In this document: positions 6,724 to 34,509 of the stretch, piece after piece
Position numbering within the stretch: position 1 is the first letter of the stretch
Layout of the letters: each line of letters begins with the position of its first letter
Source: Candidatus Uhrbacteria bacterium
GTDB taxonomy: Bacteria > Patescibacteriota > Patescibacteriia > UBA9934 > GWF2-40-263
NCBI GenBank assembly: GCA_016188475.1
Contig: JACPHT010000006.1
Span: 2,330-66,329 of the forward strand
DNA length: 64,000 nucleotides
Reading direction: 5' to 3'
Program-made: the position numbers and the translations under genes
Notes under the pieces: generated by a model
Databases searched by the model: none
Seen by the model: only the letters and a program-made list of their open reading frames with translations
Told to the model about the DNA's origin: nothing

Positions 6724-6924
6724 TTATACGCGAGTTACATTGACAGCGGCTGGTCCTTTTGGGCCAGAGTTGTCGATCTCGAAGTTGACTGTGTCGCCAA
6801 CGTTCAACTCGTCATATGTCACACCTTGGAGCTCTTTTGAGTGGAAGAAAAGATCCTTTGCCTCGCCTTCGCGAGAAATGAATCCAAATCCCTTTTCCGT
6901 AAGAGTCTTGATTGTTCCTGTCAT
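6724..6924 (-). CDS. csp: Cold-shock protein
   Basis: KGFGFI, DLFFH, GPKGPAAVNV. Confidence 0.95.
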   Translation of the reverse strand: MTGTIKTLTEKGFGFISREGEAKDLFFHSKELQGVTYDELNVGDTVNFEIDNSGPKGPAAVNVTRV

Positions 6925-7049
6925 ACGAATGTGTTTTGGTTGCTTATTTTGAAACTCGACTTTGTTTCTATGTCTAAATGACAGCGATAGTATAGATTAA
7001 GTCTCTGATTTTAGCAAGGGCTTGTTAAACCCATAAGCAGCCAATGTCC

Positions 7050-7078
7050 TTGTCTAGAGTTTGATGCTTTGTTATAAT
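7050..7078 (+). promoter_or_regulatory. Sigma-70 promoter of the tRNA-Asn/GIY-YIG locus
   Basis: TTGTCT-17 bp-TATAAT with extended TG. Confidence 0.7.
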
Positions 7079-7102
7079 CACGTCGTTCTTAATAATGAAC
7101 AT

Positions 7103-7220
7103 TCGGGGGTTCCGCCAGAGGCGGACTGACCTTTTTTGTCAGAGCTTCAGTGCTGCGCCCGCCTTTGGCGGGGCAGAGCAGTTTCAGCCTTAGGCTGACC
7201 CGCCTTTGGCGGGGGCTGTT
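7103..7220 (+). pseudogene. Disrupted duplicate of the tRNA-Asn 5' half with three palindromic insertions
   Basis: Removing the hairpin inserts leaves TCGGGGGT-AGCT(T)CAGTG-GCAGAGCAGTT-GGCTGTT, matching exon 1 at 7464-7497 plus the next anticodon base. Confidence 0.8.
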
Positions 7221-7224
7221 GATT

Positions 7225-7473
7225 ATGTCTTATACAATTTATATTCTGCGCAGTCTCAAAAATGAGAAACGATACATTGGTTATACTGGGAAAAGTGTTG
7301 ATGAAAGATTCCATGAACATTTATCCGGTACGAATCAATGGACTCGACAGAACGGTCCGTTCATTTTGATTCATACTGAGTCATTCAATGACAAAGAATC
7401 AGCCATTAAACGTGAACGTTTTCTAAAAAGCGGTCAAGGTCGTAAATGGCTTGATGAAAATATTCGGGGGTAG
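7225..7473 (+). CDS. Small stand-alone GIY-YIG nuclease (82 aa)
   Basis: YTIYILRS..RYIGYT..R..EH..G..WT..GP..E..A..RE..LKSG.GR; stop TAG is nt 8-10 of the tRNA. Confidence 0.9.
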   Translation: MSYTIYILRSLKNEKRYIGYTGKSVDERFHEHLSGTNQWTRQNGPFILIHTESFNDKESAIKRERFLKSGQGRKWLDENIRG

Positions 7474-7782
7474 CTCAGTGGCAGAGCAGTTGGCTGTGAC
7501 CAGGATCAGACGGTCCAAATAGCAGCTTCCGGTGGAAACATCGGATGAAAAATGAGGTGAATTGCTGGAAGTCTTCGATGAAAATATCTTGATAATCAGC
7601 AGCCAAGCCCCGCTACAGCGGGGAAGGTTCAGAGACTATCCGAAAGGAGTACTGTTTCGACTTTGGTTGAAACGGGAAGCGCCTCACGCCCTTTTGGGCG
7701 ATGATATAGTCCACCCCTTTGGGAAACCAGAGGATTATGTGTAACCAATTGGTCGTGGGTTCGAATCCCACCCCCCGAGCCA
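7464..7782 (+). tRNA. tRNA-Asn(GTT), intron-containing (exons 7464-7497 and 7742-7782)
   Basis: Joined exons give a cloverleaf: acceptor TCGGGGG/CCCCCGA, D arm, anticodon arm TTGG-CTGTTAA-CCAA, GTGGG-TTCGAAT-CCCAC, discriminator G, encoded CCA. Confidence 0.93.
7498..7741 (+). ncRNA. Group I self-splicing intron (244 nt, no ORF) between anticodon positions 35 and 36
   Basis: Exon ends in U and intron ends in G; IGS GCAGCT (7522-7527) pairs with exon GGCTGT with a U-G pair at the splice site; P AATTGCTGGAA (7560), Q AATCAGCAG (7594), R GTTCAGAGACTA (7627), S ATGATATAGTCC (7701); P3 TGAGGTG/CGCCTCA. Confidence 0.92.
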
Positions 7783-7971
7783 AAAAACAACCATCGTAAG
7801 TAAGATGGTTGTTTTTTGGCTCCGAACCCTGAACGAAATCCGAACTTTTTTTAGCGAAAATCCGAACGCTGAATTTTGAAAAATTTTTAAGCTCGGGCGG
7901 GCAAAAAGGAAGGAGGTTGGGGGGAAGGAATTTTTGCCCGCCCTCGCTTTTCCGCCGCCGCCGAATTTCGT
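7782..7971 (+). repeat. Left 190-bp inverted repeat of island
   Basis: Reverse complement of 12953-13142 with one mismatch seen; begins at the tRNA CCA and includes the terminator hairpin AAAAAACAACCATC/GATGGTTGTTTTTT. Confidence 0.95.
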
Positions 7972-8147
7972 ATTTCGCTTTGCGAAATGCGCCGCCAAAG
8001 AAGATGTTGCCCTTGCCCCAGCCCTCCCGTGCGCGGGCAACGACAAGGAACTCCCTTTTGTCTTTACGAATCTCAATAAATTTGATAATATAGTAATAAA
8101 TTAAGCAATATAAATCGCTATTACTTTAATTATAGTAATATATTACA

Positions 8148-8363
8148 ATGTCGTCAATAAACAAATCCACTATCGCAGAGAATATGAAGAAATACCGAAA
8201 CAAGCTCGGTATTTCTCAAGATAGGCTCTCAAAACTTGCTGATGTTACCTATAACACGATTATCAAGATTGAATCGGGAGCAAACATCAACCCAACCATA
8301 GAAACGCTGTCTAAAATCGCCAAAGCGCTTAATGTTGGCGTTGATGATTTAATACAGAAATAA
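8148..8363 (+). CDS. XRE-family HTH regulator (R-M controller-like)
   Basis: MKKYRNKLGISQDRLSKLADV..TIIKIESG..NPTIETLSKIAKAL. Confidence 0.9.
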   Translation: MSSINKSTIAENMKKYRNKLGISQDRLSKLADVTYNTIIKIESGANINPTIETLSKIAKALNVGVDDLIQK

Positions 8364-8365
8364 TT

Positions 8366-9502
8366 ATGGCTAGAACATCCTCAATCAAAAATCTAAAGAA
8401 AGCAAGGAAAGCAAAGAACGATGAGTTTTATACCCAATACGGCGACATTCAAAAAGAGATTGAAAAATATCTGGATTATAATCCTGATACTTTTCGCAAC
8501 AAGGTAGTGTATTGCAACTGCGATGATCCGTTTGAAAGCAATTTTTTCCGTTATTTTGTGCTGAATTTTAACAAACTTGGATTGAAACAGCTTATCACCA
8601 CCAGCTATAAACCTTCACCTGTAGCCAACACCCAGCTACAACTGTTTGGTAATGACAAGACTCTTCCGAAATCAAAAGGGCGTCCCAAGATAACCGCCAA
8701 CAAATTTATTATTAACGAAGTGCACGACATAGACGAAGACGGCGAATTCAACTTAAAAGATGTTTCCAAGCAATTAAAAGCAAACAAAAACAATGAATGG
8801 ACGCCACTAGAGGGCGACGGCGATTTTCGTAGCGATGAATGTATTAGTTTGCTTAAACAATCCGACATTGTCGTAACGAACCCCCCCTTTAGTTTGTTTC
8901 GTGAATATGTTAAGCAACTTTTTGATTATAATAAAAAGTTTTTGATTATCGGCAATATTAATTGTCTAACTTATCGAGAGATATTCCAAAAAATTAAAGA
9001 AAATAGAGCATGGCTTGGCAATGGAATGGGAAGGTGGATTTCTGGATTTATTGTGCCTGAATCTTACGAATTGTACGGATCAGAAGCACGAATAGACGAA
9101 AATGGAAACAGAATTGTCGCCACTAATAATTGTTTGTGGCTCACTAATCTTGACCACGGGCGCCGTCATCAACCATTGCCACTTATGACAATGGCGGAGA
9201 ATTTAAAGTATAGTAAACATAAAGAAATTAAAGGAAAAAAGTCGTATGATAAATACGATAATTACAAAGCAATAGAAGTACCTTTTACAGATGCAATACC
9301 AAGTGATTATAAGGGCGTAATGGGTGTGCCAATTACTTTTCTTGATAAATATAATCCTGACCAATTTGAAATTTTAGGAAATTCTAATGTTCGAGGAGAA
9401 CGAGAACATTTAATGAATAATGTAAAAAGTGCAACGGATTGCACTTATATAAACGGTAAGGCGCAATTTGCGCGTATTTTAATTAAACATAAGAAAAAAT
9501 AA
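8366..9502 (+). CDS. Adenine-specific DNA methyltransferase, EcoRI-methylase family
   Basis: KNDEFYT, VYCNCDDP, GDGDFRS.E, DIVVTNPPFSLFREY, MGVPITFLDKYNP.QF. Confidence 0.88.
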   Translation: MARTSSIKNLKKARKAKNDEFYTQYGDIQKEIEKYLDYNPDTFRNKVVYCNCDDPFESNFFRYFVLNFNKLGLKQLITTSYKPSPVANTQLQLFGNDKTLPKSKGRPKITANKFIINEVHDIDEDGEFNLKDVSKQLKANKNNEWTPLEGDGDFRSDECISLLKQSDIVVTNPPFSLFREYVKQLFDYNKKFLIIGNINCLTYREIFQKIKENRAWLGNGMGRWISGFIVPESYELYGSEARIDENGNRIVATNNCLWLTNLDHGRRHQPLPLMTMAENLKYSKHKEIKGKKSYDKYDNYKAIEVPFTDAIPSDYKGVMGVPITFLDKYNPDQFEILGNSNVRGEREHLMNNVKSATDCTYINGKAQFARILIKHKKK

Positions 9503-9503
9503 T

Positions 9504-10106
9504 ATGAAAGGTGTTATTTATATAATAACAACGGCTGTTTCCGGTTTGATAAAGATCGGACAAACAGGCACAAATAATTATCAAGAAAGAATGCGAAATC
9601 TTGAGGCAAATGGTTATTATAATGTTTCTGGTCTAAAAAGATTTTTTGCAATTGAACTTGATGATTACAATGAGAAAGAAAATCTTTTAAAAGAAATTTT
9701 TAATAAACATCGTGTTGGGGATAGTGAATTATTTGCCCTTGATTATGATTTAGTGCGACAACTTTTGTTATCATTCGAAGGTAAAGTGATTTATCCCAAA
9801 GATGTAAATAAAGAAAAGGAATTTGACGAAGTTTCAAAAGCTAGAGAGCAAGGAACAAGGTTTAGTTTTTATAAAAAAGGAATTAAGAACGGAGAAGAAA
9901 TTGTTTTTATAGCTGACAAAGAAATCACCGCGAAAGTGGTTGGCGAGCGTGAAGTGGAATATGGCGAACAAATTTGGAAACTTGCGCCATTAACATACAA
10001 GATATACGAGCAAAAAGGAGGATTAAATGAGAGTGGCGCATACCAAGGAGCTGCTTATTGGCAATATAAAGGCAAAAGATTAAGAGATTTACCTGATATC
10101 AACTAA
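9504..10106 (+). CDS. GIY-YIG (T5orf172-like) nuclease with C-terminal RAMA-like domain
   Basis: GVIYII..GLIKIGQT..R..E..E.F N-terminus; C-terminal GIKNGEEIVF..AKVVG..VEY..G..YWQYKGKRL pattern resembles RAMA. Confidence 0.7.
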   Translation: MKGVIYIITTAVSGLIKIGQTGTNNYQERMRNLEANGYYNVSGLKRFFAIELDDYNEKENLLKEIFNKHRVGDSELFALDYDLVRQLLLSFEGKVIYPKDVNKEKEFDEVSKAREQGTRFSFYKKGIKNGEEIVFIADKEITAKVVGEREVEYGEQIWKLAPLTYKIYEQKGGLNESGAYQGAAYWQYKGKRLRDLPDIN

Positions 10107-10115
10107 CAACATTAT

Positions 10116-11282
10116 ATGATTACAACTTTAAAAACTAACATTACTGTTAAAGACATTTGCGAAGGGTTTGTTTATAACGAACTTGAAGGCAAGGGCTTGT
10201 TTGGCTTGTCTGGTAAACTAACTATTCAGCCAGAATACCAACGCAATTATATTTATGCTTCTGACGGCGGCAAAAGAGAAATGGCTGTTATTGAATCAGT
10301 CCTCAAGGGATACCCGATAGGATTGATTTATTTTAATAAAATAATCAGCAATAATTTTGAAGTTCTTGACGGACAACAACGCATCACCAGTCTTGGACGA
10401 TTTATTACTGATAAATTTGCTATCAAAGATGAAAACGGAATGCAATATTTTGGTGGCTTAGCAAAAGACAAGAAAAATAAGATATTGGAAACTAAACTGC
10501 TTATTTATGAATGTGAGGGCACGGAAAGTCAGATCAAGGAGTGGTTCAAAACAATCAATATTGCCGGGGTTCCGCTCGTCCCTCAAGAATTGTTAAATGC
10601 GATTTATTCTGGTCCATTTGTTACATTGGGCAAAGAGGAATTCAGTAATAGCCAAAATGCCAATGTTCAAAAATGGAGCGTATACATAAGAGGAAGTGTA
10701 GATCGACAGGCATTTTTTGAAAGAGCATTAGACTGGGTAAGTAAAGGAAATATTGATGATTACATGAGCATTCATCGCAATGACAAAAATATCAATGAGT
10801 TAAAAAAATATTTCAACAGTGTGATCGATTGGATATCAAGTGTGTTTACGGATGTAGAAAGCGAGATGTGCGGACTTGAATGGGGGCGATTGTATGAGCA
10901 GTACCACAAGAAATCTTATGATCCCAAAAAAGTATTAGTCGAAGTACAAAAACTCTACGCCGATCCGTATGTAAAAAATCGCAAAGGCATTTTTGAGTTT
11001 ATTTTAGGTGGCTCTATTGATACAAAATTGCTTGAAGTCCGAGTTTTTGATGAAGCAATTAAAAAAGCAGTATACAAAGAACAAACAACTAAAGCCGAGA
11101 AGAAAAAAGTATCGAACTGCCCACTTTGTGCTATTGGACACGATGCAAACAAAGAAAAAATTTGGAGCTTGAGCGATATGGACGCTGACCATGTTTCGGC
11201 TTGGAGCAAGGGCGGTAAAAGTGATATAAAAAATTGCCAAATGTTGTGTAAAACCCACAATCGCGCAAAAGGTAATCGATAA
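10116..11282 (+). CDS. DUF262 (GmrSD/ParB-like) plus HNH endonuclease
   Basis: QPEYQRNY, EVLDGQQR, F..IN..G; C-terminal CPLC..DADHVSAWSKGG....NCQMLCKTHN. Confidence 0.88.
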   Translation: MITTLKTNITVKDICEGFVYNELEGKGLFGLSGKLTIQPEYQRNYIYASDGGKREMAVIESVLKGYPIGLIYFNKIISNNFEVLDGQQRITSLGRFITDKFAIKDENGMQYFGGLAKDKKNKILETKLLIYECEGTESQIKEWFKTINIAGVPLVPQELLNAIYSGPFVTLGKEEFSNSQNANVQKWSVYIRGSVDRQAFFERALDWVSKGNIDDYMSIHRNDKNINELKKYFNSVIDWISSVFTDVESEMCGLEWGRLYEQYHKKSYDPKKVLVEVQKLYADPYVKNRKGIFEFILGGSIDTKLLEVRVFDEAIKKAVYKEQTTKAEKKKVSNCPLCAIGHDANKEKIWSLSDMDADHVSAWSKGGKSDIKNCQMLCKTHNRAKGNR

Positions 11283-11285
11283 ACT

Positions 11286-11945
11286 ATGAGTGATAAATTT
11301 TCAATTGAAGACTTAATAATGAAAGTAATGCCCGGAGGTTTTTTGTTGGCAATATTCTATTTTTTGTTCAGGGAAAAAATCCAATTTAACTTTATTGAAA
11401 ATTTAGATTTCTTTTACACTTTTTTATTTTTTTGTTCGGCTTATATAATCGGAGAATTATTACAAACCATTGCTCATGAAATTGAATGTATTATTAATAT
11501 TTTCTTCAAATTAAGACGGCCATCGGAAATATTTTTATACAAAAACAATCCAATAACAAAGAGCGAATACAAAAGGAATGAGTTGATGAAAGAGCTTAGA
11601 TTGGAAGAAACAGAATCAAAACTTTTTGATCAAGAATACTCCGATTTATCTTTTTGGTGGTGGAAAAGGAATAAAAAGAGTGACGAGGTATCACAAAGTA
11701 TATTTTGGAAGCTCTATTCTAATATAAACCAAACAGATGAAATAAAAATTGCAAATAGGAATTATTTATTTGTTCGCGTAATGATGTTAGAATTTTTATT
11801 GATAGGAATTATTTTTATTATTGATAAAAATTTTTATTTGAGCTTTTTAAGTTTTTTGTTTTGCATTATTTTTTTATGGAGGGGCAGAGGTACTGCAAGG
11901 GGCTTAGTATTTAAAACTATATTATTAAATTTAAAAAATAGTTGA
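11286..11945 (+). CDS. Multi-TM membrane protein of unknown function
   Basis: Two N-terminal and two C-terminal hydrophobic helices around a soluble loop; 1-bp gap to next gene. Confidence 0.75.
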   Translation: MSDKFSIEDLIMKVMPGGFLLAIFYFLFREKIQFNFIENLDFFYTFLFFCSAYIIGELLQTIAHEIECIINIFFKLRRPSEIFLYKNNPITKSEYKRNELMKELRLEETESKLFDQEYSDLSFWWWKRNKKSDEVSQSIFWKLYSNINQTDEIKIANRNYLFVRVMMLEFLLIGIIFIIDKNFYLSFLSFLFCIIFLWRGRGTARGLVFKTILLNLKNS

Positions 11946-11946
11946 T

Positions 11947-12930
11947 ATGAAAAAACTTGTTATATTAAATGTGGGTGGCGCTTTAGCATCATACGCCGAA
12001 ATTGATGATAAAAAGGTAATAATTGATTTAGGAAAAAGTACTGATTTTTCACCAGTAGACAATTTTTTAATCCCATTGGCTCAGAAGCGATCTTTTAGAA
12101 AAACAGACATCGCTGGAAACACAGAAAAATATCACATAGACCAATTATTCCTAAGTCATTTGGACAATGACCACATTTCGGATTATGAAAAATTTAGGGA
12201 AAAATTTCATCCCAACTATATGACTTGTCCAAATGACAATGAAACACAGGATAGTATTTTTAAAATCATCATCAGTTTTTTCACTGGCGAAAATAATGCA
12301 AGAAAACTGGTTCTTTCTGATATGAAAACGAGGACGGCGAATGTTCCTGGTAATCCTTATGGGATGTCGCCTTCAAATCCGCTTGTCTCTATTATCCCAG
12401 AAATAATGAAGCTATTTTACATCAAACCGACCGAGTGCGGAAACGATGAAAATTTAAAACCCGGGTATGCAAATAATATAAGCCTTCTTCTATTTTTTCA
12501 TTCAAATAATAAAACACTTTTAATGCCTGGCGACATATTAAAAGAGGGTATGGAGTGTCTAATTAAACGCAATAACGATTTCAAAAAGCAACTTAACGAT
12601 TTTGGTGTTGACTTCTTAATTGCTCCTCATCACGGGCTTGCGACTTCATTTTCTGAACGATTATTTCAAGAAATTAAAGGAAATAAAACAAGACTAAATA
12701 TTATTTCCGAAAAAGTTAGAGAGGAAGATTCTGACGAAAACCGATCAGATGTTGATAAAAGATATTACGATTCTAATTATTCATCCGGAGAAAATTCTTT
12801 AAAACAAAACGCTGTGAAAACATCAATGGGACATATTGTAATAGATTTAGAATCTGACGAAACTGAGATTAAACAATGCTCTGATATTAATGATGTTTTA
12901 AAAGAATTTATTCCAGTTTCTAACTCGTAA
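11947..12930 (+). CDS. Metallo-beta-lactamase-fold hydrolase (ComEC/Rec2-like)
   Basis: LNVG, IIDLG, SHLDNDH (HxDxDH), MPGD, APHHG. Confidence 0.85.
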   Translation: MKKLVILNVGGALASYAEIDDKKVIIDLGKSTDFSPVDNFLIPLAQKRSFRKTDIAGNTEKYHIDQLFLSHLDNDHISDYEKFREKFHPNYMTCPNDNETQDSIFKIIISFFTGENNARKLVLSDMKTRTANVPGNPYGMSPSNPLVSIIPEIMKLFYIKPTECGNDENLKPGYANNISLLLFFHSNNKTLLMPGDILKEGMECLIKRNNDFKKQLNDFGVDFLIAPHHGLATSFSERLFQEIKGNKTRLNIISEKVREEDSDENRSDVDKRYYDSNYSSGENSLKQNAVKTSMGHIVIDLESDETEIKQCSDINDVLKEFIPVSNS

Positions 12931-12952
12931 GCGGCGCGCCAACTTTGTTGGC

Positions 12953-13142
12953 ACGAAATTCGGCGGCGGCGGAAAAGCGAGGGCGGGCAAAAATTCCTTC
13001 CCCCCAACCTTCTTCCTTTTTGCCCGCCCGAGCTTAAAAATTTTTCAAAATTCAGCGTTCGGATTTTCGCTAAAAAAAGTTCGGATTTCGTTCAGGGTTC
13101 GGAGCCAAAAAACAACCATCTTACTTACGATGGTTGTTTTTT
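12953..13142 (-). repeat. Right 190-bp inverted repeat of island
   Basis: Reverse complement of 7782-7971. Confidence 0.95.
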
Positions 13143-13200
13143 TATACTTTCTTAAACAAAAAAACCCGCGGGATGCGCGGGAGTGAGATTGACTAAAGTG

Positions 13201-14367
13201 TTAACCATGCTGATGCAGAACCGCGTATGAAAGACCTGGCATGAGAGATCCGTCATCAATGTCGACAGCGAGCATACCGCCAGCGAAGAGCATTGGATAT
13301 GACGAATCCATATAGTGCCAAGTGAATGGCACAGTCGAGATGTGCGAAGGTACTGACCCGAGCGCGATGCCGTGGATGCCCCAGCGTCCTTCCTCAGCAC
13401 GTGTCCAGTCGAACGCGTCATCCGACTTTTCTATTAGAACACCTTTTGGTGACTTGTTGCGTCTGACAGATCTTTCATCCTCTGATTGGAGAATGAAGTT
13501 GACGAACGTGCTTATCCAACCATTGAAAGTATCAGAGCCAGACTCGGAGCTGAACTTGTAGAGTGACTTCCAAAAGTATTCATCGAGTATTTCGCCACCG
13601 GCTTGATCAACGATCTTTTGTAGAACCGGCAAAAGATGCTTGAAGTAGCGACCAAGCGGACGGGCAAAAACCTCGGAGAGTTGCATCGCTGCGTTCAGGA
13701 CCTTGCGGTAGTCCTCCGGTGTGCCTGCAAGGCGAATATCCGGTATTCCACATGACGTATAGGTACTATAGTCGTAGAACTTCTGCGTCGCGTTCATGAA
13801 CACGACGAGACTTGCCGCATCTGTCTCTGGCGTAGCAGTCGTGAATCCTGGCAACATGTGTTGCATGATACCTGGCGGAACGACATCCTCGAGCTTGGGT
13901 CGGAACAATACGATCGCTTCACCCCATGGACTCTTTGGGTCGCCGTAGCACAGGTTGTCGTGTTGCACGTCTATTTTCACTTTATCGCGCGAACGTGTGA
14001 ACAGGTGAGAGAACTCCTCGGGATTCAGGTTCACGGCTGTCGCGACCTCGTGCGAGATTAGGAACATAAGAGCCTCTGGACGAAGTGTTAGAGGATGATG
14101 GCTAGTGAATCACTCGTGGATTGTCTGGAAAAACAGACTCGACGATGGAATGAACTCCGGGTTGTAGTCAACTGGCACAAACCCAAGTGTTTCGCGGACA
14201 ACATGCTCAATTTTGTGTCCGGGAAGAACACTCGCGAGAAAGTTGGCCGTTGGCGTTGAGGCACCTTTTGGTTGAACAGACTCGATGAAACCCGGCTGTG
14301 GACGACCATAGACATCCTTGTTTGGAATATTCAGACTGATTTGTCTGCACAATGGTGTTTTACTCAA
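13201..14367 (-). pseudogene. DUF4419-like protein with one in-frame TGA (14110-14112)
   Basis: ORFs 14110-14367 and 13201-14067 share a frame: FFQTIHE*FTSHHPLTLRPEALMFLI; later CGIP.I.L.GT.EDY and NGWI motifs; AAAGGAGAG RBS before TTG. Confidence 0.7.
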
Positions 14368-14519
14368 GTTACTCTCCTTTGATTTTAAGCAAACTGCAAT
14401 GCGACGCTTTTACAGGCTATAAAAAAATATCAAAGTTGTCAACGGCCACATATAATGACTTTTTCTGTTTTCAGATTTGATAGTTTTCTTTTTCATCAGT
14501 CAAGTCTAAAATAGAACTT

Positions 14520-22477: not shown

Positions 22478-25400
22478 ATGATTGAACGTTTTTCAATTAT
22501 TTTTCTCAGATTTTCAGGAATTATTTTTAATCTCAAAGGCCGATTGATTCAAGCTGAAGGCTGGCATAGAGCTCTTCCGATTGCCGTTGAGTTGATCGTC
22601 GTCGAAATGATTTTTACCGTTGTATCTTTGCCATTATTTTTTATTGTTTCACCAAAGAAAATACAGGAATCCGGTTTCATTTTTCCGTCAAAAGAAAAAG
22701 AGCATTTTCATAATTTTTCTGTAAGAAGAAAAATTACGCTAACAACAACTTTTGGCGCGGCCTTGATCTACGCGATTAAGATTATTTTTGTTGGCATCGT
22801 GTCTTTATATTTATTCGGCGCGACCCCGCTTCTTGCCGCAATTCAAAACTGGGATTTTAGCACAGCAGGCGATTACACTTATGATTCATCAAAAATTGAA
22901 GTGACAGGTGGAGTGGCACAACTTAAAAATTTAGGCTCAACAACCAGCGGGGCAACAACAAATCCTTCGTTTGATTCTAATTCAACAGGTTGGACATATG
23001 CTGATTGGGATCAAGGTGGTGGCGAAGTAGATGTTAAGGGAGATCGTCAGACCACAGGAGGAAATCCTAACGGATGGTTAAGAATCAATGTTCCTTCAGG
23101 ATCTGATGATGAATTGGGGGGATATTGGCGTCAATCTTTTATAACGACTGTTGCTGATCCGACAACGACAGTGAGTTTTGATTGGAAAGTTACGGCGTTT
23201 GATTCGTCTCCAGGGCCAATTACGTTCAAACTTTTTGCGTTTGTTGATACTGGTTCAGGTGTTCCTGTTATAGGAAATGAGGTTTGGACGTCTGGTGAAA
23301 TAACCGGAACAAGCGGGTGGGCTTCTGTGAGCAATCTCGATGTGTCGTCAAAGGTTACAGCCGCTGGAACGTACTATCTGAAGATTGCCACTTGGGTTGA
23401 AACTCCAGGGTCTGCTACTGGTCCGTTTACTTTGGGTTATGACAATGTTCAATTGAATTGGACAAAAACAACAGTAAGTTACGATACAAGCAATCCAACA
23501 ATCACTCCGAACAGTTCTCTTACGATGTCAAAAACAATAAGTTGGAACGGGTTTACTGAAACTGCGACAAAAAATGGAGGGGAAATTTATTATCAACTTT
23601 CTGATGACGATGGTTCTACTTGGAAATATTGGAATGGCTCTATTTGGACAACAGCAGGCGCTACCAACTACAACATTGCAACAGAAGTTAATACAAACAT
23701 CGGCACATTCCCTACAACCAACAACAAAATAAAGTGGAAAGCATTTTTATCAAGCAGTGGAACTCAACAAGTGATTTTAGATAATATCGCGATCGATTAC
23801 ACTGAAAACAGTTTGCCAGTAATTAACAACTTGTCTGCAAGTCAAGGAACAAGCACGGGCCGCGTTTATATCACTTATGATTTGCAGGACAACGATAGCG
23901 ATCCGGAAAGTTTAACAGCATATGAATACTCTTTGACAGGCGCTTTTTCTGGAGAGCAAGTTACAATGACAGCCGCAACAGGAGATGGGTTGCATAGCGG
24001 TGTGACTGGTCTGACATCGTCTCCAGTTGGAATTTCACACACTTTTGTTTGGGACGCATTTTCACAACTCGGAGCAGTTTATAATACAACTGTTTATGTT
24101 CGTTTGCGTGCAAATGACGGGGTTGGAAACGGAGCTTACGCAACTTCAACTGCGTTTACGGTCGATTATGTAAATCCTGTTGTGTCAAACGTTGTTGCGT
24201 TGCAGACTGCTGGTTCAACAAATGTTCAGATCACTTATGATTTAACTGACAATACATCAGACAATCTGCTTGTTGAAATTTATATTTCAGATGATGGCGG
24301 CGCAACTTGGGCTGTAACAGACACGTCTGTTTCAGGAAGTGTTGGGTCAAGTCAAACAACTGGAGTTGGGAAAACAATCACATGGAATGCCGGAGTTGAT
24401 TTTGATGAACAAAATCAAGCTGACATTCAAGTTAGAGTTCGCGCGAAAGACAAGTGGCAAAATCAGGGGAACAATGTAGCCTCAGCAAATTTTTCGCTTG
24501 ATACTTTGAATCCAGTTGTTCTCACAACTTCCAATCTCCAATCTCAACCAAACGCAGGAGACACAACTGTTTTGATTGGAGGGTCGTTTACTGAAACAAA
24601 TCCAAACACCAATGATTTTTATGTTGCAATAAACGGCGGAGCTTATGGTTTGGCAACTTCAGGAACTACAAACACATCTTCACCTTCAAACCAAGCAACT
24701 TCTGTCGGCTCAACACTTGACGGAAACGATTACATTTCAAAAGTTAAAATCACTCACACTGATGATTATGGTCAAACAGTTGATAATGAAAACTTTGTCA
24801 TCGCCTGTAACAACTGTTTTGGATTTGACAATAAATCCAAATGTGAGTGAAGCATCGGACGTTGAATATGCTATTGCATAAACATCGACCAATCAGTTTG
24901 TTCAAGCAAACGGAACGCTTGGAGCAAGCGCTGTTTGGGAAGTTATTGGAACATCAAGCGGACAATGGGGAAACAACACTGGAATATCTGGAAAAGTTCA
25001 TGTGAGCGGACTTACTTCTCCTGTTGCAAATTATATTTTCAAAGTTAAATCGAGAAATCCGAGCGACGCGGCGCACGCTGTTTCATCTGAATCTGCATAT
25101 TCCGCAACAGCACAAATTACAAATACTGCTCCGTCAATTTCACTTGGCTCAATTGCGCAAACTACCGATGGCACTGATTATGTAACAATAAATTATACTG
25201 GAACTGATGGGCAAGGTGACGTAAATAGTTTGACCGTTTTTGAATATTCTATAGACAACTCAACGTGGAGCACAATGACAGAAAAAACAGGAGTCGGATC
25301 GGACGGAACTTCGAATTTGGTGTTCTTGCCAAGCGGAAGCGCGCATGACTTCATGTGGGATGTCGGGACAGATCTGCCTAGTGTTGAAGATTCTACAGTG

Positions 25401-28400
25401 TATATTCGACTTCGTTCTTCAGACACATTAACGACGAGCACTTTGGTAACTTCATCGGCTTTTGAGATAGACACTGTTTTGCCTGTTGTTTCAAGTGTTT
25501 CAGCTTCACAAAATTTAGGCGCCCGCACTGTTGTATTCACATACACGCTCACTGACGCGAACAGCTCTTTGGTTGAATTGGATATATCAGAAGACGGAGG
25601 TTCAACTTGGAACGTAACAGACACATCAGTATCAGGTCATGTTGGTTCAGGAGTGACGCCTGGAAGCAAAACAATAACGTGGAATGCTGGAGCTGATTTT
25701 GATAATCAATACCAAACAGACTTGCAGGTTCGAATACGCGCGAAAGATACTTTTGGAAATCAAGGCACGAACACGTCATCATCAAATTTTACAGTTGATA
25801 CAAACGACCCTTCTGTTACAAATGTTAGTGCTGTTCAAGACAGCATGCTCGATACGTTTACATTTCATTACGACGTGAGTGAAGATGTTGGAAACGTCGC
25901 AATCGGACTTGAAATTTCAAGCAACGGAGGAACAACTTGGACAATACCAACAACAACAGTTACGGGTGATACTGGATCTGGAATTGCTCCTGGAGCAAAC
26001 AAAACAATAACTTGGAATGCGGCTGTGGATTACAACAGTCAGGAAAAAACAAACATGAAAATTCGCGTGACAGCAACGGATGGATTTAGCAATACTTCAA
26101 ACGCGAGCTCTGCAAATTTTTCACTTGACACACTTGCACCTCGTGTAACAAATGTCGGAGCATCGCAAACTCTCGGAACAACAAACATTTCAATCACATA
26201 CACTCTTGCTGATCAAAATGTGTCGCTCGTTGAAATTGATATTTCAGATGATGGCGGAGCGACTTGGGCAGTGACAGATACAAGCGTTACTGGAGATGTT
26301 GGAACTGGAGTTTCTTCAGGGAGCAAAACAATCACATGGAATGCCGGAGTTGATTTTGATGAACAAAATCAAGCTGACATTCAAGTTAGAGTTCGCGCGA
26401 AAGATGTCTATGAGCATCAAAGCGCAAATGTTGCTTCTTCAAATTTTTCGCTTGATACTTTGAATCCAGTTGTTCTTACAACTTCCAATCTCCAATCTCA
26501 ACCAAACGCCGGAGACACAACTGTTTTGATTGGAGGTTCGTTCACTGAAACAAATCCAAACACTAATGATTTTTATGTTGCGATAAACGGAGGAGCTTAT
26601 GGTTCGGCAACTTCAGGAACTACAAACACATCTTCACCTTCAAACCAAGCAACTTCTGTCGGCTCAACACTTGACGGAAACGATTACATTTCAAAAGTTA
26701 AAATCACTCACACTGATGATTATGGTCAAACAGTTGATAATGAAAAATGTGACAGTTAATAAAAACGCGGTTGAAACAGATGGTTTGGAATATGCGATTT
26801 TTGAAACAAGTCAGAATCAATATGTTCAGACAAACGGAACGCTTGGCGCGAGTGCGATTTGGCGAACAACAGCGCAGTGGGGAACAGTGACGGTAAACGG
26901 CCTTGCGAATGATTCATATACTTATCAATTTAAAGTCAAATCTCGAAACACAAGCGATGGCTCTAACGCGGCATCAAGCGAAAGCGCGCTTTCAGGAGGC
27001 GCATCGTCTGCGAATCAATCTCCAGTGATCGTGCTTGGATCAATTGCTCAAACAACAGACGGTTCGAGATACGTCACTATAAACTATACTGGATCAGACT
27101 TGGAAAGCGAAAATACGACGATTATAACAGCCGAATACTCTACGAACGGTACGACATGGAACAACATGACGGAAAAGTCTGGAGTTGGAAGCGATGGAAA
27201 AACAGGCCTTGTTTTCGTATATACAGGAACAGCGCACGATTTCATGTGGGATGTAGGAACTGATCTTGCTAACGTTGAAGACTCGACTGTTTTTATTCGC
27301 TTGCAAGCAAATGATGGAACGTCTGACGGAGGAGTTGCAACATCAAGTGCGTTTACAATTGACGCAAAAAATCCAGTGATCTCATCAGTATCAGCTGAAC
27401 AACAAAATGGTTCAAACAATGTTGTGTTCAGTTATACACTTACTGATCTTTCAAATAGTCTTGTTGAAATTGATATTTCAGACGATGGGGGAGCTACATG
27501 GAATGTCACTGATACTTCAGTCACTGGCGATATCGGCGCAGGGGTTTCACCAGGAACAGGAAAAACAATAACATGGAATCCCGGAGTTGATTTTAGCGGA
27601 CAAGAACAGTCAGATTTGCGTGTGCGAGTTCGCGCAACAGATATTTTTGGAAATGCTGGCGCAAACGCGTCGTCAGCGAATTTTTCAGTTGATACAGAAT
27701 CGCCGCGTATCACAAATGTTACAGCTTCTCAAGATTCCGGATTGAATACTGTAACAATTGGATATGATATCGAGGACGCAAATGTTTCAAATGTTGTTAT
27801 AGAAATTTCCGAAGACAACGGATTAACATGGGGAGTCGCAACAACAACTCTTTCTGGAGATGTCGGAGCCGGTATTACATCTGGAATTGGCAAAATAGTT
27901 TCGTGGAATGCGGCCGTTGATTTCCCGAATCGTGAACAATCAGGAATGATGATTCGCGTGCGCGCGACTGATTCTCACAATAATTTAAGCGGCAATGTTT
28001 TTTCACCTTCATTTTCTGTTGACACTCTTGCGCCAGTTATTTCTAGTGTTTCCGCTTCGCAAACCTTGGGTTCTGACAATGTCGTCTTTACTTACAATTT
28101 ATCTGATAGCGGTTTTGTAAATATAGAGCTTGATATTTCACAAGACAGCGGCGCTACTTGGACAGTGACGGATACGTCTGTAATAGGTGCTATAGGATCA
28201 GGACAAACAACGGGAAATGGAAAAACAATCACATGGAATGCCGGAGTTGATTACCCAGATGAAGATCGTTCAACAATGCGAGTTCGAATTCGCGGAACCG
28301 ATGGATTCAGCAATATGAGCGTGAATGTTGAATCATCTGATTTTATAATTGACACATTTGATCCAACACCAAACGTCACTTCCAATCTCCAATCTCAACC

Positions 28401-31400
28401 AAACGCCGGAGACACAACTGTTTTGATTGGAGGGTCGTTCACTGAAACAAATCCAAACACTAATGATTTTTATGTTGCGATAAACGGAGGAGCTTATGGT
28501 TCGGCAACTTCAGGAACTACAAACACATCTTCACCTTCAAACCAAGCAACTTCTGTCGGCTCAACTCTTGACGGAAACGATTATATTTCAAAAGTTAAAA
28601 TCACTCACACTGATGATTACGGACACAGTGTTACAAATCAAAACACATCACCAAATACATCTTTGAAGTATGTGAAGCCTTACACTCCGCAAGCGCCAAC
28701 AGTTAATAATCCTCAAAATACATCAGTTGATGTTACGATCATTCCACATGCGTCTGAAACATCTGGTTTGGAATACGCAATTTTTGAAACAACAACTGGA
28801 AAATATGTGAAAGCCAACGGCACGCTTGACACAAGCCCTGTTTGGAGAACCACAACCGCATGGGGGACAATCACAGTGACAGGCCTATCTTCACCTGTTG
28901 CTCAATATAGTTTCAAAGTGAAATCAAGAAACACATCAGACACGCTTAACGCGGTTTCTAGCGAAAGTAATTTTTCTTCTTCAAACGCAATCGCAAATAC
29001 TTCTCCATCTATCTCGATTACAAGTGTTGCTCAACAAACGTCAACAAGTTACGCGCTGATTGAATACATTGGGACAGATACTCAAAACGACACAAATAAT
29101 TTAACGACTTTTGAATATTCAACCGACGGTTCATCATGGAATGTAATGACTGAAAAATCCGGAGTTGGAAGTGATGGAACTTCAGGGTTAATTTTCACTT
29201 CAAGCGGCGCGGCATTCACATTTGGATGGGATATTGCGGCAGACTTACCAAACACAGGCGACCAAACGGTTTACGTTCGTTTGCAATCAACCGATACGCT
29301 TGCAAACAGCAACATGGCTACTTCTTCGGCGTTTGCGGTAGACACGCTTGGTCCTGTTATTTCAAATATTCAAATAAGTCAGGCACCAGGTACAAACATA
29401 ATGACATTTACTTACGATCTTTCAGACAGCACAGCCGCGAATAATACGGTGACATTGCAAATTTCGTCTGACGCTGGTTTGACATGGACAGTTCCAACAA
29501 CTTCCGCAACAGGAGATGTAGGCTCTGGTGTTTCGTCCGGACTTGCTCGTTCAATAACATGGAACGCCGGAGTTGATTTTGACAATCAAGAAAATTCAAC
29601 AATGCAAATTAGATTGCAAGGAACGGATGTGTATGACAACAGTGGCGCAATTTCAACGTCTTCGAACTTTACTGTCGATACAAAATCTCCTGTTGTTTCA
29701 GGAGTATCAGCAGTTCAAGTCGATGATTCAAAAAATGTTCAAGTCAATTACACTTTGAGCGATCTATCTTCTGGTGGTTTGTTGGTTGAGTTCAGTATTT
29801 CATCAGATAACGGAACAACATGGACAGTTCCTGCTGTCACATACAGCGGAGATGTTGGATCAGGACAAACAACAGGCGCAAAACAATTTGTTTGGAATGC
29901 GGGAGCTGACTTTGATGATGAATATCAGGACGACATGAAAGTCCGCGTTCGCGCTCGAGATTATTTTGCAAATCAAGGCGTGTACACATCGTCATCGGTA
30001 TTTGAAGTTGATACAAGAGCCTCTGTTGTTTCTGATGTTTCTGCTGTTCAGAATACAGGAGCGCGCACAGTGAACATCGCTTACGATCTAACTGACGACA
30101 CTTCAAGCAATTTGAATGTTGAGTTTGAAGTTTCAGAAGATAATGGAATCAGCTGGACAATAGCGCACAGTTCATCAACAGGAAACGTTGGTTCAGGACA
30201 AACAACCGGAGCTGGAAAGATAATTGTTTGGGATGCCGGAACTGATTTTGACGGACAATTTCAAACTGACATGAAAGTTCGCGTTCGCGCAACTGATCGT
30301 TTTACAAATCAAGGGAGTTTTGTAGATTCGTCTGCGTTTACGCTCGATACTGCCAACCCAGTTGTATCAAATGTTTCAGGTTCTCAAATTTTAGGTTCAG
30401 AAACAGTATCGATTTCTTATAATCTTACAGATGGCACCTCAACCAATCTTTCAACAGTTCTTGAAATTTCTTCAGACAATGGAACGACTTGGACAGTTCC
30501 AACAACTTCTGCCTCTGGAAATATTGGATCAGGCCAGACAACGGGCGCTGGAAAAACAATAACATGGAATGCAGGAGTTGATTTTGATTCAAACGCAAAC
30601 TCAAACATGGAAGCTAGAATTCGCGCTAACGATTCATTTTCAAATCAGGGAAATTTTACAAGTTCATCAAACTTTTCTGTTGACACAAAAGATCCGGCAA
30701 CACTTGCATCATCAGATTTGCAAGCGCAACCTCATGCTGGGGATACTTCAGTTTTGATAGGCGGATCATTTATCGAGACAAGTCCTAACACGAATAATTT
30801 TTTCGTAGCGGTGAATGGAAACGGATATGGTTCGGCTTCAGCTGGAGATTCTGACACGACCTCGCCTTCAAATCATTTGACGCCTGTTGGAATCACGCTG
30901 AAAGGCAACAATCGCATTGGAAAAGTTAAGATCGTTCACGCTGATGATTATGGACATTCATTTACAAATGAGAATTTGTCTCCAGCGACTGCTTTCAAAT
31001 TTGTAAAGCCTTATACGCCGATGGCTCCGACTGTTTCAAATCCAACAACGAATTCTGTTGATGTTGTTGTAAACAAAAATGCGAATGAAGTTTCTGGTTT
31101 GGAATATGCGATTTATGAAACTACTCAAAATAAATATGTTCAAGCCAATGGAACGCTTGGCGCGAGCGCGGTTTGGCAAACCGGAGCTGTTTGGGGAACT
31201 GTTACAGTTACTGGTTTAAACTCTCCTGTTTCAAGTTACATGTTTAAGACAAAGTCGAGAAACAGTGCGGACGTCGCGCACGCCGCTACCAGCGAAAGTG
31301 ATTTGTCATCATCGGCATCTGTTTCTCAAACAGCACCATCAATCACGATTGATTCTGTTTCTCAATCTTCAGGTAACGGTTACGTCATAATAAATTATAC

Positions 31401-34400
31401 CGGGGTCGATGAGCAAAATGATGTTAGCAATATTTCAGTAAAAGAATACTCACTCAACGGAATTGATTGGTTTGACATGACAGAAAAATCAGGAGTCGGA
31501 AGTGACGGAATCGCGGGTCTTGAGTTTACAACAACAGGCGCGTCATTTATTTTTGCTTGGGATGCGCAAACCGATGTTTCAGATTTTGAGGATTTTATTT
31601 ATGTCAGATTAAGAGCCAATGATGGAGTTCAAGACGGTAATATAGAAACAAGTTCCGCGTTTGCTTTGGATTTGAAATCGCCAGTTGTTTCAAATGTTTC
31701 TGCTACACAGTTAGCAGGGACAACTTCAATAGAAATCTCATACGATGTTTCCGATTTTACTTCAAATATATCTGTTGCTTTTGAAATTTCTTCAGACAAT
31801 GGCTCAACATGGACAGTGCCTACAACTTCAGCCACAGGAGATTTTGGTTCAGGGCAGACAACGGGAAATGGAAAAATGATCACGTGGAACGCTGATCTTG
31901 ATTTTGACGGACAATATCAAACTGACATGAAAGTTCGCGTTCGAGCAACTGATAGTTTCAGCAATCAAGGAGATTTCAGTGAATCACCAGCTTTCGCTGT
32001 TGAGACAGCAAACCCTGTTGTGTCGAATCTATCAGCCGTACAAATGGCAGGAACAAGCGATGTTGCGGTATTTTACGACCTGTCAGACGACACATCAACA
32101 GATTTGACAGTTGTCTTTGATATTTCTGATGACAACGGCTCAACATGGACTGTTGTTGACACTTCCGTGACTGGAGACATCGGTTCTGGTCAAACAACAG
32201 GAATAAACAAGTCGTTCATTTGGGATGCTGGAACTGATTTTGCAGAACAATATCAAACTGACATGAAAGTTCGCGCTCGAGCAACTGATAGTTTCAGCAA
32301 TCAAGGAGATTTTACCGAATCATCATCATTCAGTGTTGACACAGATGTTCCTGTTGTTTCAAACGTAACTTCTTCTCAAGCAAGCGATTCAGCAAGCGTT
32401 ACGATAACTTACGATCTTTCAGACAACACATCAACAGATTTGACAGTTGTCTTTGATATCTCTGATGACAACGGCTCAACATGGACTGTTGTTGACACTT
32501 CCGTGACTGGAGACATCGGTTCTGGTCAAACAACAGGAATTAACAAGCTGTTCATTTGGGATGCTGGAACTGATTTTGGAAATGAATATCAAACTGACAT
32601 GAAAGTTCGAGTTAGAGCGACTGATAGTTTCAGCAATCAAGGAGATAACAGCGAATCCAATGTGTTTGTTCTTGATACATCCGCACCAGTGATCTCGAAC
32701 GTTTCAGCATCTCAAAACTTAGGATTTGGAACGGTTACAATTTCGTACGACATTTCAGACGACGTGTTGACTGATTTAATAGTTGATTTGAATGTCTCAA
32801 ATGATGGTGGACTTACTTGGACAGTTTCCCATCCGTCAGTTTCTGGAGATATTGGTTTAGGACAAACCGCAGGAGTTGGTAAAACAATTATTTGGAATGC
32901 CGGAGCTGATTTCGACGATCAAGATTTGTCCACAATGAGGATTCGACTTATTGGCACTGATAGTTTTGGGAACATAAGTTCTCCTTTTGTTTCGACGGAT
33001 TTTGCCGTAGACACGATGGATCCGATTGGACTTGCAACATTTGGAAAGTTTTTGAGCACGAGTACGTCAGTCACAATGAATTGGGGATCGGTTGTTGACA
33101 CAAACTTCGACCATTACGAATTATGGTACGGAAATAATCAAACAGACGTTCAAAATAGGTCTGGTTCTGCTTTAATTTGGTCTGTTGATGATGATTCAGA
33201 TTTGGATAATTCTTTAACGGCTTCTACAACAATCACTGGCATCACACTTGAAGCGGATTTATTTGTGAAGATTTGGGCTGTTGACTCATTCGGACACGAA
33301 ATTACAGCGCAAGATGTAAATGTGTTTACTCCTGTTGCGGCCGCTGGAGCTGTTGGTGGAGGGCAACTTTTAGACTTGATTCCTCCGAATAAACCTGTTT
33401 TGAATCCAGTTGCGACTCCAACAAACAATACAACCGCGATAATAGCCGGATTATCAGAACCAAACTCTTATATTGATCTGTACGACAATGGAGTTTTTGT
33501 TAAGCGTTTATCTTCTCAAGCAAATGCTAGCGGATTTTTCTCCGATGATTTAATTTTTGGAGAGGGAAGCCATCTGCTAACCGCAACAGCAACAGATTTA
33601 TCAGGAAATGTTAGTGAACAATCTGACTCCATCAATCTTGTTGTTGACTTGACCGCTCCAAACAAACCGACCGCATTTAATAAGAACGATTCTGAAATCT
33701 TTGAGATCTCGCCTCTTATTTTTGGAACTTCTGAACCTTTTGCGCTTATAAAAATTGTAATTGACGACACAAACGCAGTTACAACGTCAGCAGATCAAAA
33801 CGGTTATTGGCGATATTTACTTCCAACAGACTTAGCTTTGAATTTAGGAATTCATACGTTTGAATTAACTGCTTCTGATTTGGCTGGAAATGTCAGTGAG
33901 CCTGCCTTATTAACACTACACGTCGTTATACAACCAATTTTACCGCCATCTATATTCACTCCAAGTATTCCTACAATACCAACCATTTCAACGCCTGGAA
34001 TCGGATTATTGCCTGGGGCCGGACTATTAACCGTTCTGCCAACAATAGCTCCACCTGTACCAGTTTCTGAAATAATCAAAGAACAAGTCGAAGCGATTGA
34101 ATTACCGGGTTTGCCAACGCCTGATATTAAATTAGCAAGCACAGTTTATGACGGAAGAAATTTTGTGTTCAGCGGAACTGCGATACCAAACAGTGACGTG
34201 GTTGTCTATATTCACAGCGACCAGGCTCTGATATACACAAGCCACGCAAACGGTAAAGGCGATTGGAATGTGATTCATTCACAGGACGCGACTGAACTTT
34301 CAAAAGGCGATCATACTATCTATGCGATCTCGATTGATCCTATCGCAAAAATAAAAAGCGCCGTGGCGCCGATTAAAATTTTCACAGTTAATAAAAGCTT

Positions 34401-34509
34401 ATTGGTTTCAATGTTTAATTATCTGAATTTGCGAACAACAATCGCAAGTGTACTTGTACTTCTCGTGTGTATTTGGTGGTTATACAGATTAAGAAAACGA
34501 AATGCCTAA
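22478..34509 (+). CDS. Giant (~4,000 aa) Ser/Thr-rich repeat surface protein, broken here into three ORFs
   Basis: The same ~110-aa modules (ITYDL.D..S.D.G.TW..G.VG..KTITWNAG.DF..VRVRA.D..F.VDT..P) run through 22478-24850, 25002-26759 and 26599-34509; breaks at ~24792, 24879 (TAA) and ~26746. Confidence 0.8.
24487..24792 (+). repeat. Intragenic near-identical repeat, copy 1 (copies at 26441-26746 and 28378-28619)
   Basis: Direct nucleotide identity apart from a few synonymous changes. Confidence 0.9.

Follow-up and report, generated by a model that had tools for sequence, protein, structure and literature searches.

A 64,000-nucleotide stretch of Candidatus Uhrbacteria bacterium DNA (assembly GCA_016188475.1, contig JACPHT010000006.1, positions 2,330 to 66,329), referred to here as the window, contains a cassette of defence genes (positions 7782 to 13142) bounded by long inverted repeats at the 3′ end of a tRNA-Asn gene. 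The cassette probably derives from an island mobilized by a large serine recombinase (LSR). Islands of this type carry element attachment sites (attP) consisting of a core between two arms, P on the recombinase side and P′ on the cargo side; a helix-turn-helix (HTH) regulator is the usual first cargo gene. Features of the tRNA gene and the repeats, in nucleotides (nt) and base pairs (bp), were as follows.

7464 to 7782, plus strand: tRNA-Asn(GTT), the integration target, called in its spliced form by ARAGORN; T-loop motif 18 nt from the crossover
7498 to 7741, plus strand: 244-nt group I intron within the anticodon, between GT and T (Rfam RF00028, 83 bits versus a gathering score of 50)
7777 to 7779, plus strand: GAG before CCA, the putative crossover region; here the tRNA runs directly into the arm with the host terminator, the arrangement of an empty target
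7777 to 7822, no strand assigned: perfect 19-bp hairpin comprising the tRNA end, the terminator stem, a loop reversed relative to the distal copy and a mirrored core
7782 to 7971, plus strand: left repeat, with 35 bp of inverted host terminator and 155 bp of P′, followed by the HTH-side interior
7817 to 7879, plus strand: mini-frame, WLRTLNEIRTFFSENPNAEF and a stop codon, an orphan attP-derived C-terminal recombinase tail; second copy at 13107 to 13045 on the minus strand
12953 to 13142, minus strand: right repeat, with the P′ arm, GGAGCCA (the normal distal end of an island) and then the native host terminator at 13107 to 13142

The inverted repeats and their presence in the DNA

As the initial annotation had reported, the segments at 7782-7971 and 12953-13142 are 190-bp reverse complements, with a single mismatch (G at 7913 versus A). 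This was the longest of the 178 inverted pairs in the window, the runner-up being 62 nt at 82% identity; no third copy was present in the 893-kb genome assembly, and the flanking DNA beyond the two repeats differs. The terminator, TGGCTCC/GGAGCCA (7817-7823 and 13101-13107) and the 20-codon mini-frame were found in both arms, as had been described. The GC-rich hairpins also attributed to the repeats were not recovered: the GC-rich part (7885-7975) folded no better than shuffled sequences (z = +1.06), and the striking structure was instead the perfect 19-bp stem formed by 7777-7795 and 7804-7822, which extends into the tRNA's own end (z = −9.9 versus shuffles). An Rfam search of the arms gave no family above the cut-off and the viral_contigs scan gave 0 matches. 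A promoter scan was close to the shuffle level (26 versus 20.3 ± 4.7); hence, no promoter is claimed.

Logan contigs from four sequencing runs (X1 to X4), all from one study and with X1 possibly being the source sample, were placed on the region. These contigs are unable to phase across 190 bp. In X1 and X2, a 58-nt contig piece (7754-7811) bridged the tRNA end and the reversed loop at depths of 16.2 and 14.9, respectively. This piece extends 28 and 30 letters around 7781/7782, slightly below the 31-letter bridging rule of the tool, and contains ten 31-mers that each hold both tRNA-specific and flipped-loop bases. The depth of the arm was 35.5 in X1 and 26.3 in X2, versus flanks at 20.7 and 18.3, and was thus about double. 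The single-copy depth of the junction 31-mers and the near-doubled depth of the arm indicated that the repeat is present twice in the DNA. The initial annotation had raised the possibility of an assembly artefact; in that case, the assembler would have folded the contig back at the palindromic terminator. The junction does lie within a palindrome, the left junction was not seen in the X4 contigs and all of the runs come from one study, but the depths in two runs and the occurrence of the same junction type with different hairpins in unrelated assemblies make this explanation barely credible. In X3 and X4, most of the cargo pieces were present at about 1/4 to 1/3 of the flank depth (window 6800-14000), and the locus thus seems to be variable within populations. 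The X4 contigs carried the right arm into the flank without a break and at host depth, a hint that a different interior may lie behind this arm. Neither an empty-site joint nor an inversion joint was among those listed for the runs, although contigs are unable to demonstrate absence.

The target tRNA gene

The repeat begins at the end of the intron-bearing tRNA-Asn, upholding the location at a tRNA 3′ end that had been assigned to the cassette. The intron is inserted between anticodon positions 35 and 36 and was assigned to group I by an RF00028 score above the gathering score and by rejoining of the exons to form a tRNA. ARAGORN without its intron mode detected no tRNA in the window because the 244-nt intron splits the anticodon; with introns allowed, the gene was labelled Thr, a mislabelling of tRNA-Asn(GTT). 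A genome of the same genus (G002) has an intron-less tRNA-Asn that is identical at 74 of 75 nt to the spliced tRNA of the window, and similar group I introns are present in loci L143 and L204. Introns in tRNA genes of Patescibacteria are said to have been reported elsewhere; among the titles and opening parts of abstracts covered by our literature search, no such report was found. Upstream, at positions 7102-7473, the 5′ half of tRNA-Asn is repeated in degenerate form and interspersed with GC hairpins (z = −5.1); a small GIY-YIG gene comes next and ends in the 5′ end of the real tRNA-Asn. A similar hairpin-bearing tRNA 5′ copy is present upstream of tRNA-Val in the window genome (G000, contig C10 near 142100).

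A family of LSR islands with two attP sites

A search of 401 genomes of the class with the inner 155 bp of the arm (E ≤ 1e-12) detected matches in 49, including the window's own, and the core-plus-arm pattern was present in at least 124 metagenome stretches and in 67 genome stretches. The intact layout, observed in L060, L216, L037, L039, L041 and the tRNA-Ser island of the window genome, consists of the tRNA, core, P, an LSR gene reading towards the tRNA, an inverted attP (P-core-P′), the HTH gene, cargo, P′, core and host DNA. P repeats of 127 to 134 bp (73 bp in L037) surround the recombinase gene and P′ repeats of about 120 to 316 bp surround the cargo. The cargo varies widely between loci and includes type II and type III restriction-modification (R-M) systems, a cyclase of the cyclic-oligonucleotide-based antiphage signalling system (CBASS), OLD/ATPase genes and others (42 of 53 cargo open reading frames scanned). 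The arm does, therefore, bracket different cargo elsewhere, a point that the initial annotation had wished to see checked. The nearest NCBIfam matches were SCCmec Ccr and XisF, all below the cut-off.

Each 190-bp repeat of the window consists of 35 bp of host terminator and 155 bp of the P′ arm of this family, which bears out the suggestion of att-like ends. The window arm was identical to those of intact LSR islands at 146 to 152 of 155 nt in six of eight loci and less similar in L037 and L143. In G002, a P arm and an LSR gene are present behind the near-identical tRNA-Asn, and this LSR is 95% identical to that of L060 over 362 amino acids (aa). The mini-frame had been proposed to be the tail of an att-spanning serine recombinase gene, and this assignment proved sound: it is in the same frame as the LSR C terminus in L060 and L216, where the protein passes the same tryptophan codon and then terminates within the antisense of the tRNA. 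In L077, L092 and L119, the mini-frame tail continues natural LSR frames (544, 498 and 536 aa, respectively). The P arms of these three loci are different ones, and the loci are possibly older islands that were themselves targeted at their junction.

The junctions placed the putative crossover at GAG: in 5 of the 13 listed, variation on the host side sets in immediately behind GAG, and the tRNA side differs before it. In all loci scored for the respective motif, the T-loop motif was 18 nt away from GAG and a similar motif in P′ was 23 nt away. This 18- versus 23-nt register matches the 5-bp shift between attB and attP given for LI integrase (PMC3783163).

No recombinase was detected within the island by Pfam or tblastn, in agreement with the initial annotation. 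The single LSR of the window genome, intact at 503 aa, is encoded in a complete tRNA-Ser(CGA) island (G000:C5 10255-13884) that also has the spare attP and both pairs of repeats. Its identity to LSRs of the tRNA-Asn type is 53%, and the island has different arms; no P arm of the tRNA-Asn type was found in this assembly. The window cassette passes as a derived member of the family by virtue of the P′ arm with its in-frame tail, insertion at GAG with the 18/23-nt register, and the HTH gene and shared defence cargo. It does not qualify as an autonomous LSR island, having neither a recombinase nor a direct attL/attR pair sharing the core.

Other loci exhibited further rearrangements. In L086 (5801-10029), cargo lies between two recombinases of different tRNA specificity, suggesting that hybrids are formed via recombination in P′ arms. 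A minimal scar at tRNA-Asn was observed in L032 (8620-8745; genome G030), in which the start of P is fused to the end of P′ and both recombinase and cargo are gone. L103 was considered as an excised circle and rejected, as the spare-attP frame is present on both sides.

A recurring mirrored-terminator junction

The position occupied by P-LSR-P in relatives is taken in the window by the tRNA end, the 19-bp hairpin and the mirrored core, giving the layout tRNA-core-terminator hairpin-core-P′-HTH-cargo-P′-core-terminator. The hairpin was identified as a host terminator because a second copy precedes host DNA at 13107-13142 and because similar terminators occur elsewhere, both after tRNA-Asn in G012 and after many tRNAs of the window genome. 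Twelve of the 47 tRNAs in the latter genome are followed by a stem of at least 9 bp starting within 6 nt, and only the one behind tRNA-Asn is mirrored.

Among 165 distinct core-P′ junctions, 52 were of the P type, 98 had other flanks, 12 were mirrored and 3 were too short to call. Shuffling of the 110 non-P flanks gave an expectation of 0.007 mirrored junctions versus the 12 observed. These 12 include the window, a pair sharing one hairpin (L143 and L157) and a probable P-arm collapse (L146), leaving 9 other terminator-like hairpins; a tenth was found in L293 at a tRNA-Gln without an encoded CCA, where the mirror takes in host bases up to GAG. All four of the scorable mirrored junctions, and also L293, open into the HTH-side interior, which is the side to which the recombinase module is normally attached. 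The hairpin shared by L143 and L157 lies behind the tRNA in the former and behind another arm in the latter. L236 has two mirrored junctions with alternating loops and with cassettes in the same direction, and the loops were reversed between copies in both informative cases (the window and L236). G432 reproduced the whole layout of the window across two contigs and had one and the same terminator at either end; its arms differ next to the core (77 of 95 positions identical), which indicates that the left arm was not copied from the right one. In one case, L037, an abutting terminator is present while the LSR is kept and the spare attP lacks about 48 nt of P.

One explanation for such hairpins is that they are remnants of collapsed repeats which had flanked the recombinase gene rather than host terminators. 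L146, L189 and L240 do look like collapses of this kind, but the window hairpin matches no P arm seen, is repeated distally before host DNA and resembles the terminators after other tRNAs of the family, making a collapse a very remote prospect for this locus.

A further 162 and 127 genomes yielded no new mirrored junction among the 6 junctions listed from 10 new loci. Two candidates were discarded: the L050 hairpin, considered as a left-end mirror, precedes an inverted tRNA piece at the distal end, and a pattern match in G544 is not at a tRNA. The right flank (13100-14400) had matches in none of five relatives, and no empty site with this terminator was found among them. Within the titles and abstract openings of the open-access literature searched, no report of this island family or junction was encountered. 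The locus thus adds a recurring, recombinase-free state with a mirrored terminator to the family of LSR islands with two attP sites.

Proposed origin of the cassette

The cassette is probably the cargo half of an LSR island targeting tRNA-Asn, in which the lost recombinase module would have been replaced by a mirrored host terminator through resolution of the spare attP onto the folded-back terminator. The left junction combines an empty target, tRNA-GAG-terminator, with an inverted product site, terminator-CTC-P′, a 14-bp stem serving as the point of fusion. In the first step, the recombinase would engage the tRNA-side junction and the spare attP, likely reading the tRNA T-loop as one half of attB and tolerating any downstream arm. 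The recombinase segment would then be lost, and finally the cargo-side end would pick up the distal terminator through the repeat and join the tRNA via the 14-bp stem of the terminator. The predicted outcome is a tRNA with its terminator restored and its target clean; the cargo, having no partner site, would be locked in place, and later islands could stack in front of it. Homologous recombination between the arms could still invert or exchange the cargo. A reusable target fits the arrangements in L157 and L236, and stacking predicts the sharing of one hairpin between the tRNA of L143 and another arm in L157. This origin is supported by the layout of the family, the P arm and LSR of G002, the cargo shared with L225 (see below), the 12 mirrors in 165 junctions, their opening on the HTH side, the repeated terminator and unequal arms of G432, the reversed loops, the mirror reaching GAG in L293, the 18/23-nt register and the state of L037.

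Several observations weigh against this origin. The order of events is deduced from end products alone. Abutting stems without a mirror were present in 29 of the 110 non-P flanks, indicating that a stem alone is insufficient. Both ends have been seen in only one other genome, G432, on two unjoined contigs and with a 2-kb insertion in the left arm, and a second terminator copy was not found in the fragmented assemblies of G431 or G098. One of the 12 hairpins (L146) resembles collapsed P arms, another route to a similar junction. No intact LSR of the tRNA-Asn type was found flipped or fused to the tail, with 31 reading away from the spare attP and the three LSR loci flagged otherwise holding no open recombinase frame of >100 aa; hence, activity of the spare attP is presumed only.

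The same left end could have arisen from a replication error that preceded recombination. Template switching of a fork at the terminator stem and the long arms would duplicate the cargo around a palindromic junction, after which the recombinase would excise itself with one cargo copy. This sequence of events needs known reactions only, template switching at short interrupted inverted repeats being a described process (PMC4689423); it yields a precise join of tRNA and terminator with a reversed loop, and the two arms of the window are nearly identical. It predicts identical core-proximal arms, however, and those of G432 differ there (77/95, a single case); moreover, no tandem duplication of cargo was present among the loci whose self-repeats were listed. 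A replication error was therefore considered unlikely, although deserving of some weight.

Natural cassette exchange would provide another route. Inverted and direct copies of the tRNA end behind the terminator would recombine with the two attP sites of a circular island, bringing in the cargo and leaving out the recombinase, so that two attP × attB reactions would suffice. A possible two-target site without an island is present in G649 (L262 1432-1650), with tRNA-Asn, a hairpin, an inverted acceptor end and a direct end copy, and the window genome has tRNA-end modules behind tRNA-Glu, tRNA-Gly and tRNA-His, while the LSR island of L050 sits in a direct copy. Modules that repeat the terminator have direct loops, though, whereas the loops of the window and L236 are reversed; in most modules, the inverted piece is a T-arm only, without the core; and, with the pattern used, a contiguous precursor was found in only 1 of 401 genomes. 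These points leave cassette exchange with little probability. In G000, these modules behind tRNA-Glu, tRNA-Gly and tRNA-His are located at C2 2526-2830, C5 26811, C6 31505 and C8 17332; they consist of the terminator, an inverted T-arm piece and hairpins and, where visible, have a direct tRNA-end copy with a repeated terminator.

An extension of the preferred origin, loss of the recombinase module with mirroring of the host terminator, is that the spare inverted attP is a built-in drop-off device. It would deposit defence cargo irreversibly, discard the recombinase and restore the terminator and target of the tRNA, generating locked, integron-like arrays whose mirrored terminators have alternating loops. 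Judged from the junctions described above, this is a tentative proposal and is perhaps not the function of the site.

Cargo genes and their inversion

The interior of the cassette contains six genes, all on the plus strand.

8148 to 8363, plus strand: XRE-type HTH regulator, the usual first cargo gene (Pfam HTH_3; position recurs in relatives)
8366 to 9502, plus strand: EcoRI-type adenine methyltransferase with an NPPF motif (PF13651, E = 1.5e-131)
9504 to 10106, plus strand: T5orf172-domain protein (PADLOC PDC-S57-like), 91.5% identical to cargo of the L124 LSR island
10116 to 11282, plus strand: protein with GmrSD_N (DUF262) and an HNH nuclease
11286 to 11945, plus strand: membrane-type protein with no Pfam, PADLOC or NCBIfam match, 92% identical to cargo of the intact LSR island L225
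11947 to 12930, plus strand: metallo-beta-lactamase-fold hydrolase with weak PDC-M48B and ComEC-like matches, 94% identical to L225 cargo

The GC content of the cargo is 28 to 38%, versus about 40% for the contig. The last 1.84 kb of the window cargo recur, 90% identical and in the opposite orientation, in the intact island L225. The membrane protein and hydrolase genes (11286-12930) occur together in L225, had no match in the other fetched loci and possibly encode a two-gene defence effector. Elsewhere in the window, positions 22478-34500 and 38900-59200 contain long genes for repetitive surface proteins and a dispersed repeat of ~30 to 60 nt.

The initial annotation had proposed that the cassette is invertible or trans-mobilized, with a recombinase encoded elsewhere flipping or moving the unit and thereby controlling cargo expression from the tRNA promoter. 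Of the 51 family junctions that could be scored, 11 had the cargo flipped (6 of 24 on the P side and 5 of 27 on the host side), L225 has the same distal genes in the opposite orientation, and the cargo depth of about 1/4 to 1/3 of the flanks in X3 and X4 would also fit a dedicated system. Inversion of cargo within the family therefore stands, but it could be explained by ordinary homologous recombination between the arms, for which 190-bp repeats are enough. Coupling to the tRNA promoter did not hold up; such a switch is unlikely because terminators lie outside both ends and because the HTH gene lies inside and flips with its upstream region. No cognate invertase was found in the window genome, whose single resolvase-domain match is the LSR of the tRNA-Ser type, with other arms, and which also has two Phage_integrase-domain matches. 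Mobilization in trans as a two-ended unit likewise found no support: the cassette has one and the same product-type junction at either end, inverted, and product-type sites normally do not recombine without an extra factor (PMC3783163). A dedicated invertible or trans-mobilized cassette is consequently highly improbable.

Comparison with known systems and implications

The cassette works like a dead serine-integrase island. It resembles the large serine integrase elements (LI/A118, phiC31 and Bxb1) in its short core, attP-derived arm, 5-bp motif shift between tRNA and attP, and accessory cargo at a conserved host gene. It differs from them in that the family has a second, inverted attP, the window member lacks a recombinase and its ends are the same product-type junction inverted, with the host terminator duplicated. 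Integron arrays and engineered recombinase-mediated cassette exchange are similar to L236, where recombinase-free cargo units are stacked at one site in one orientation; unlike integron arrays, the family has a serine rather than a tyrosine recombinase, an HTH gene for each cassette, and no resident integrase or attC fold.

The R-M units of Furuta et al. (PMC2853133) likewise hold R-M cargo flanked by inverted repeats and lack a mobility gene. Those units have 26- to 65-bp repeats and 8-bp target duplications like those of DNA transposons, whereas the repeats of the window are attP arms and a host terminator at a tRNA end. No short target duplication was present in the window outside the element-specific repeats, and the outer 35 bp of each repeat is the host terminator. 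Inverted duplications produced by template switching (origin-dependent inverted-repeat amplification [ODIRA] and tandem inversion duplication; PMC4689423) similarly retain a natural short inverted repeat and its loop at the junction. In contrast to these, the window mirrors only about 35 bp of host DNA, stops at a recombination core and replaces the recombinase module.

Of attB, the tRNA half alone appears to be sufficient for the recombinase. With two inverted attP sites around the cargo, this apparent sufficiency would make the family a compact candidate system for the natural exchange of cassettes at tRNA genes and, possibly, an engineering tool. The window provides the first end-product clue to what the spare attP of a widespread family of Patescibacteria islands may do, and it suggests one route by which bacteria with small genomes could lose the mobile machinery and yet retain defence genes. 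Should the mirror be no more than an accident of repair, it would still be a diagnostic scar of dead islands. This odd junction recurs in unrelated tiny bacteria, and it likely locks the cargo in place while the tRNA site stays free for the next island.

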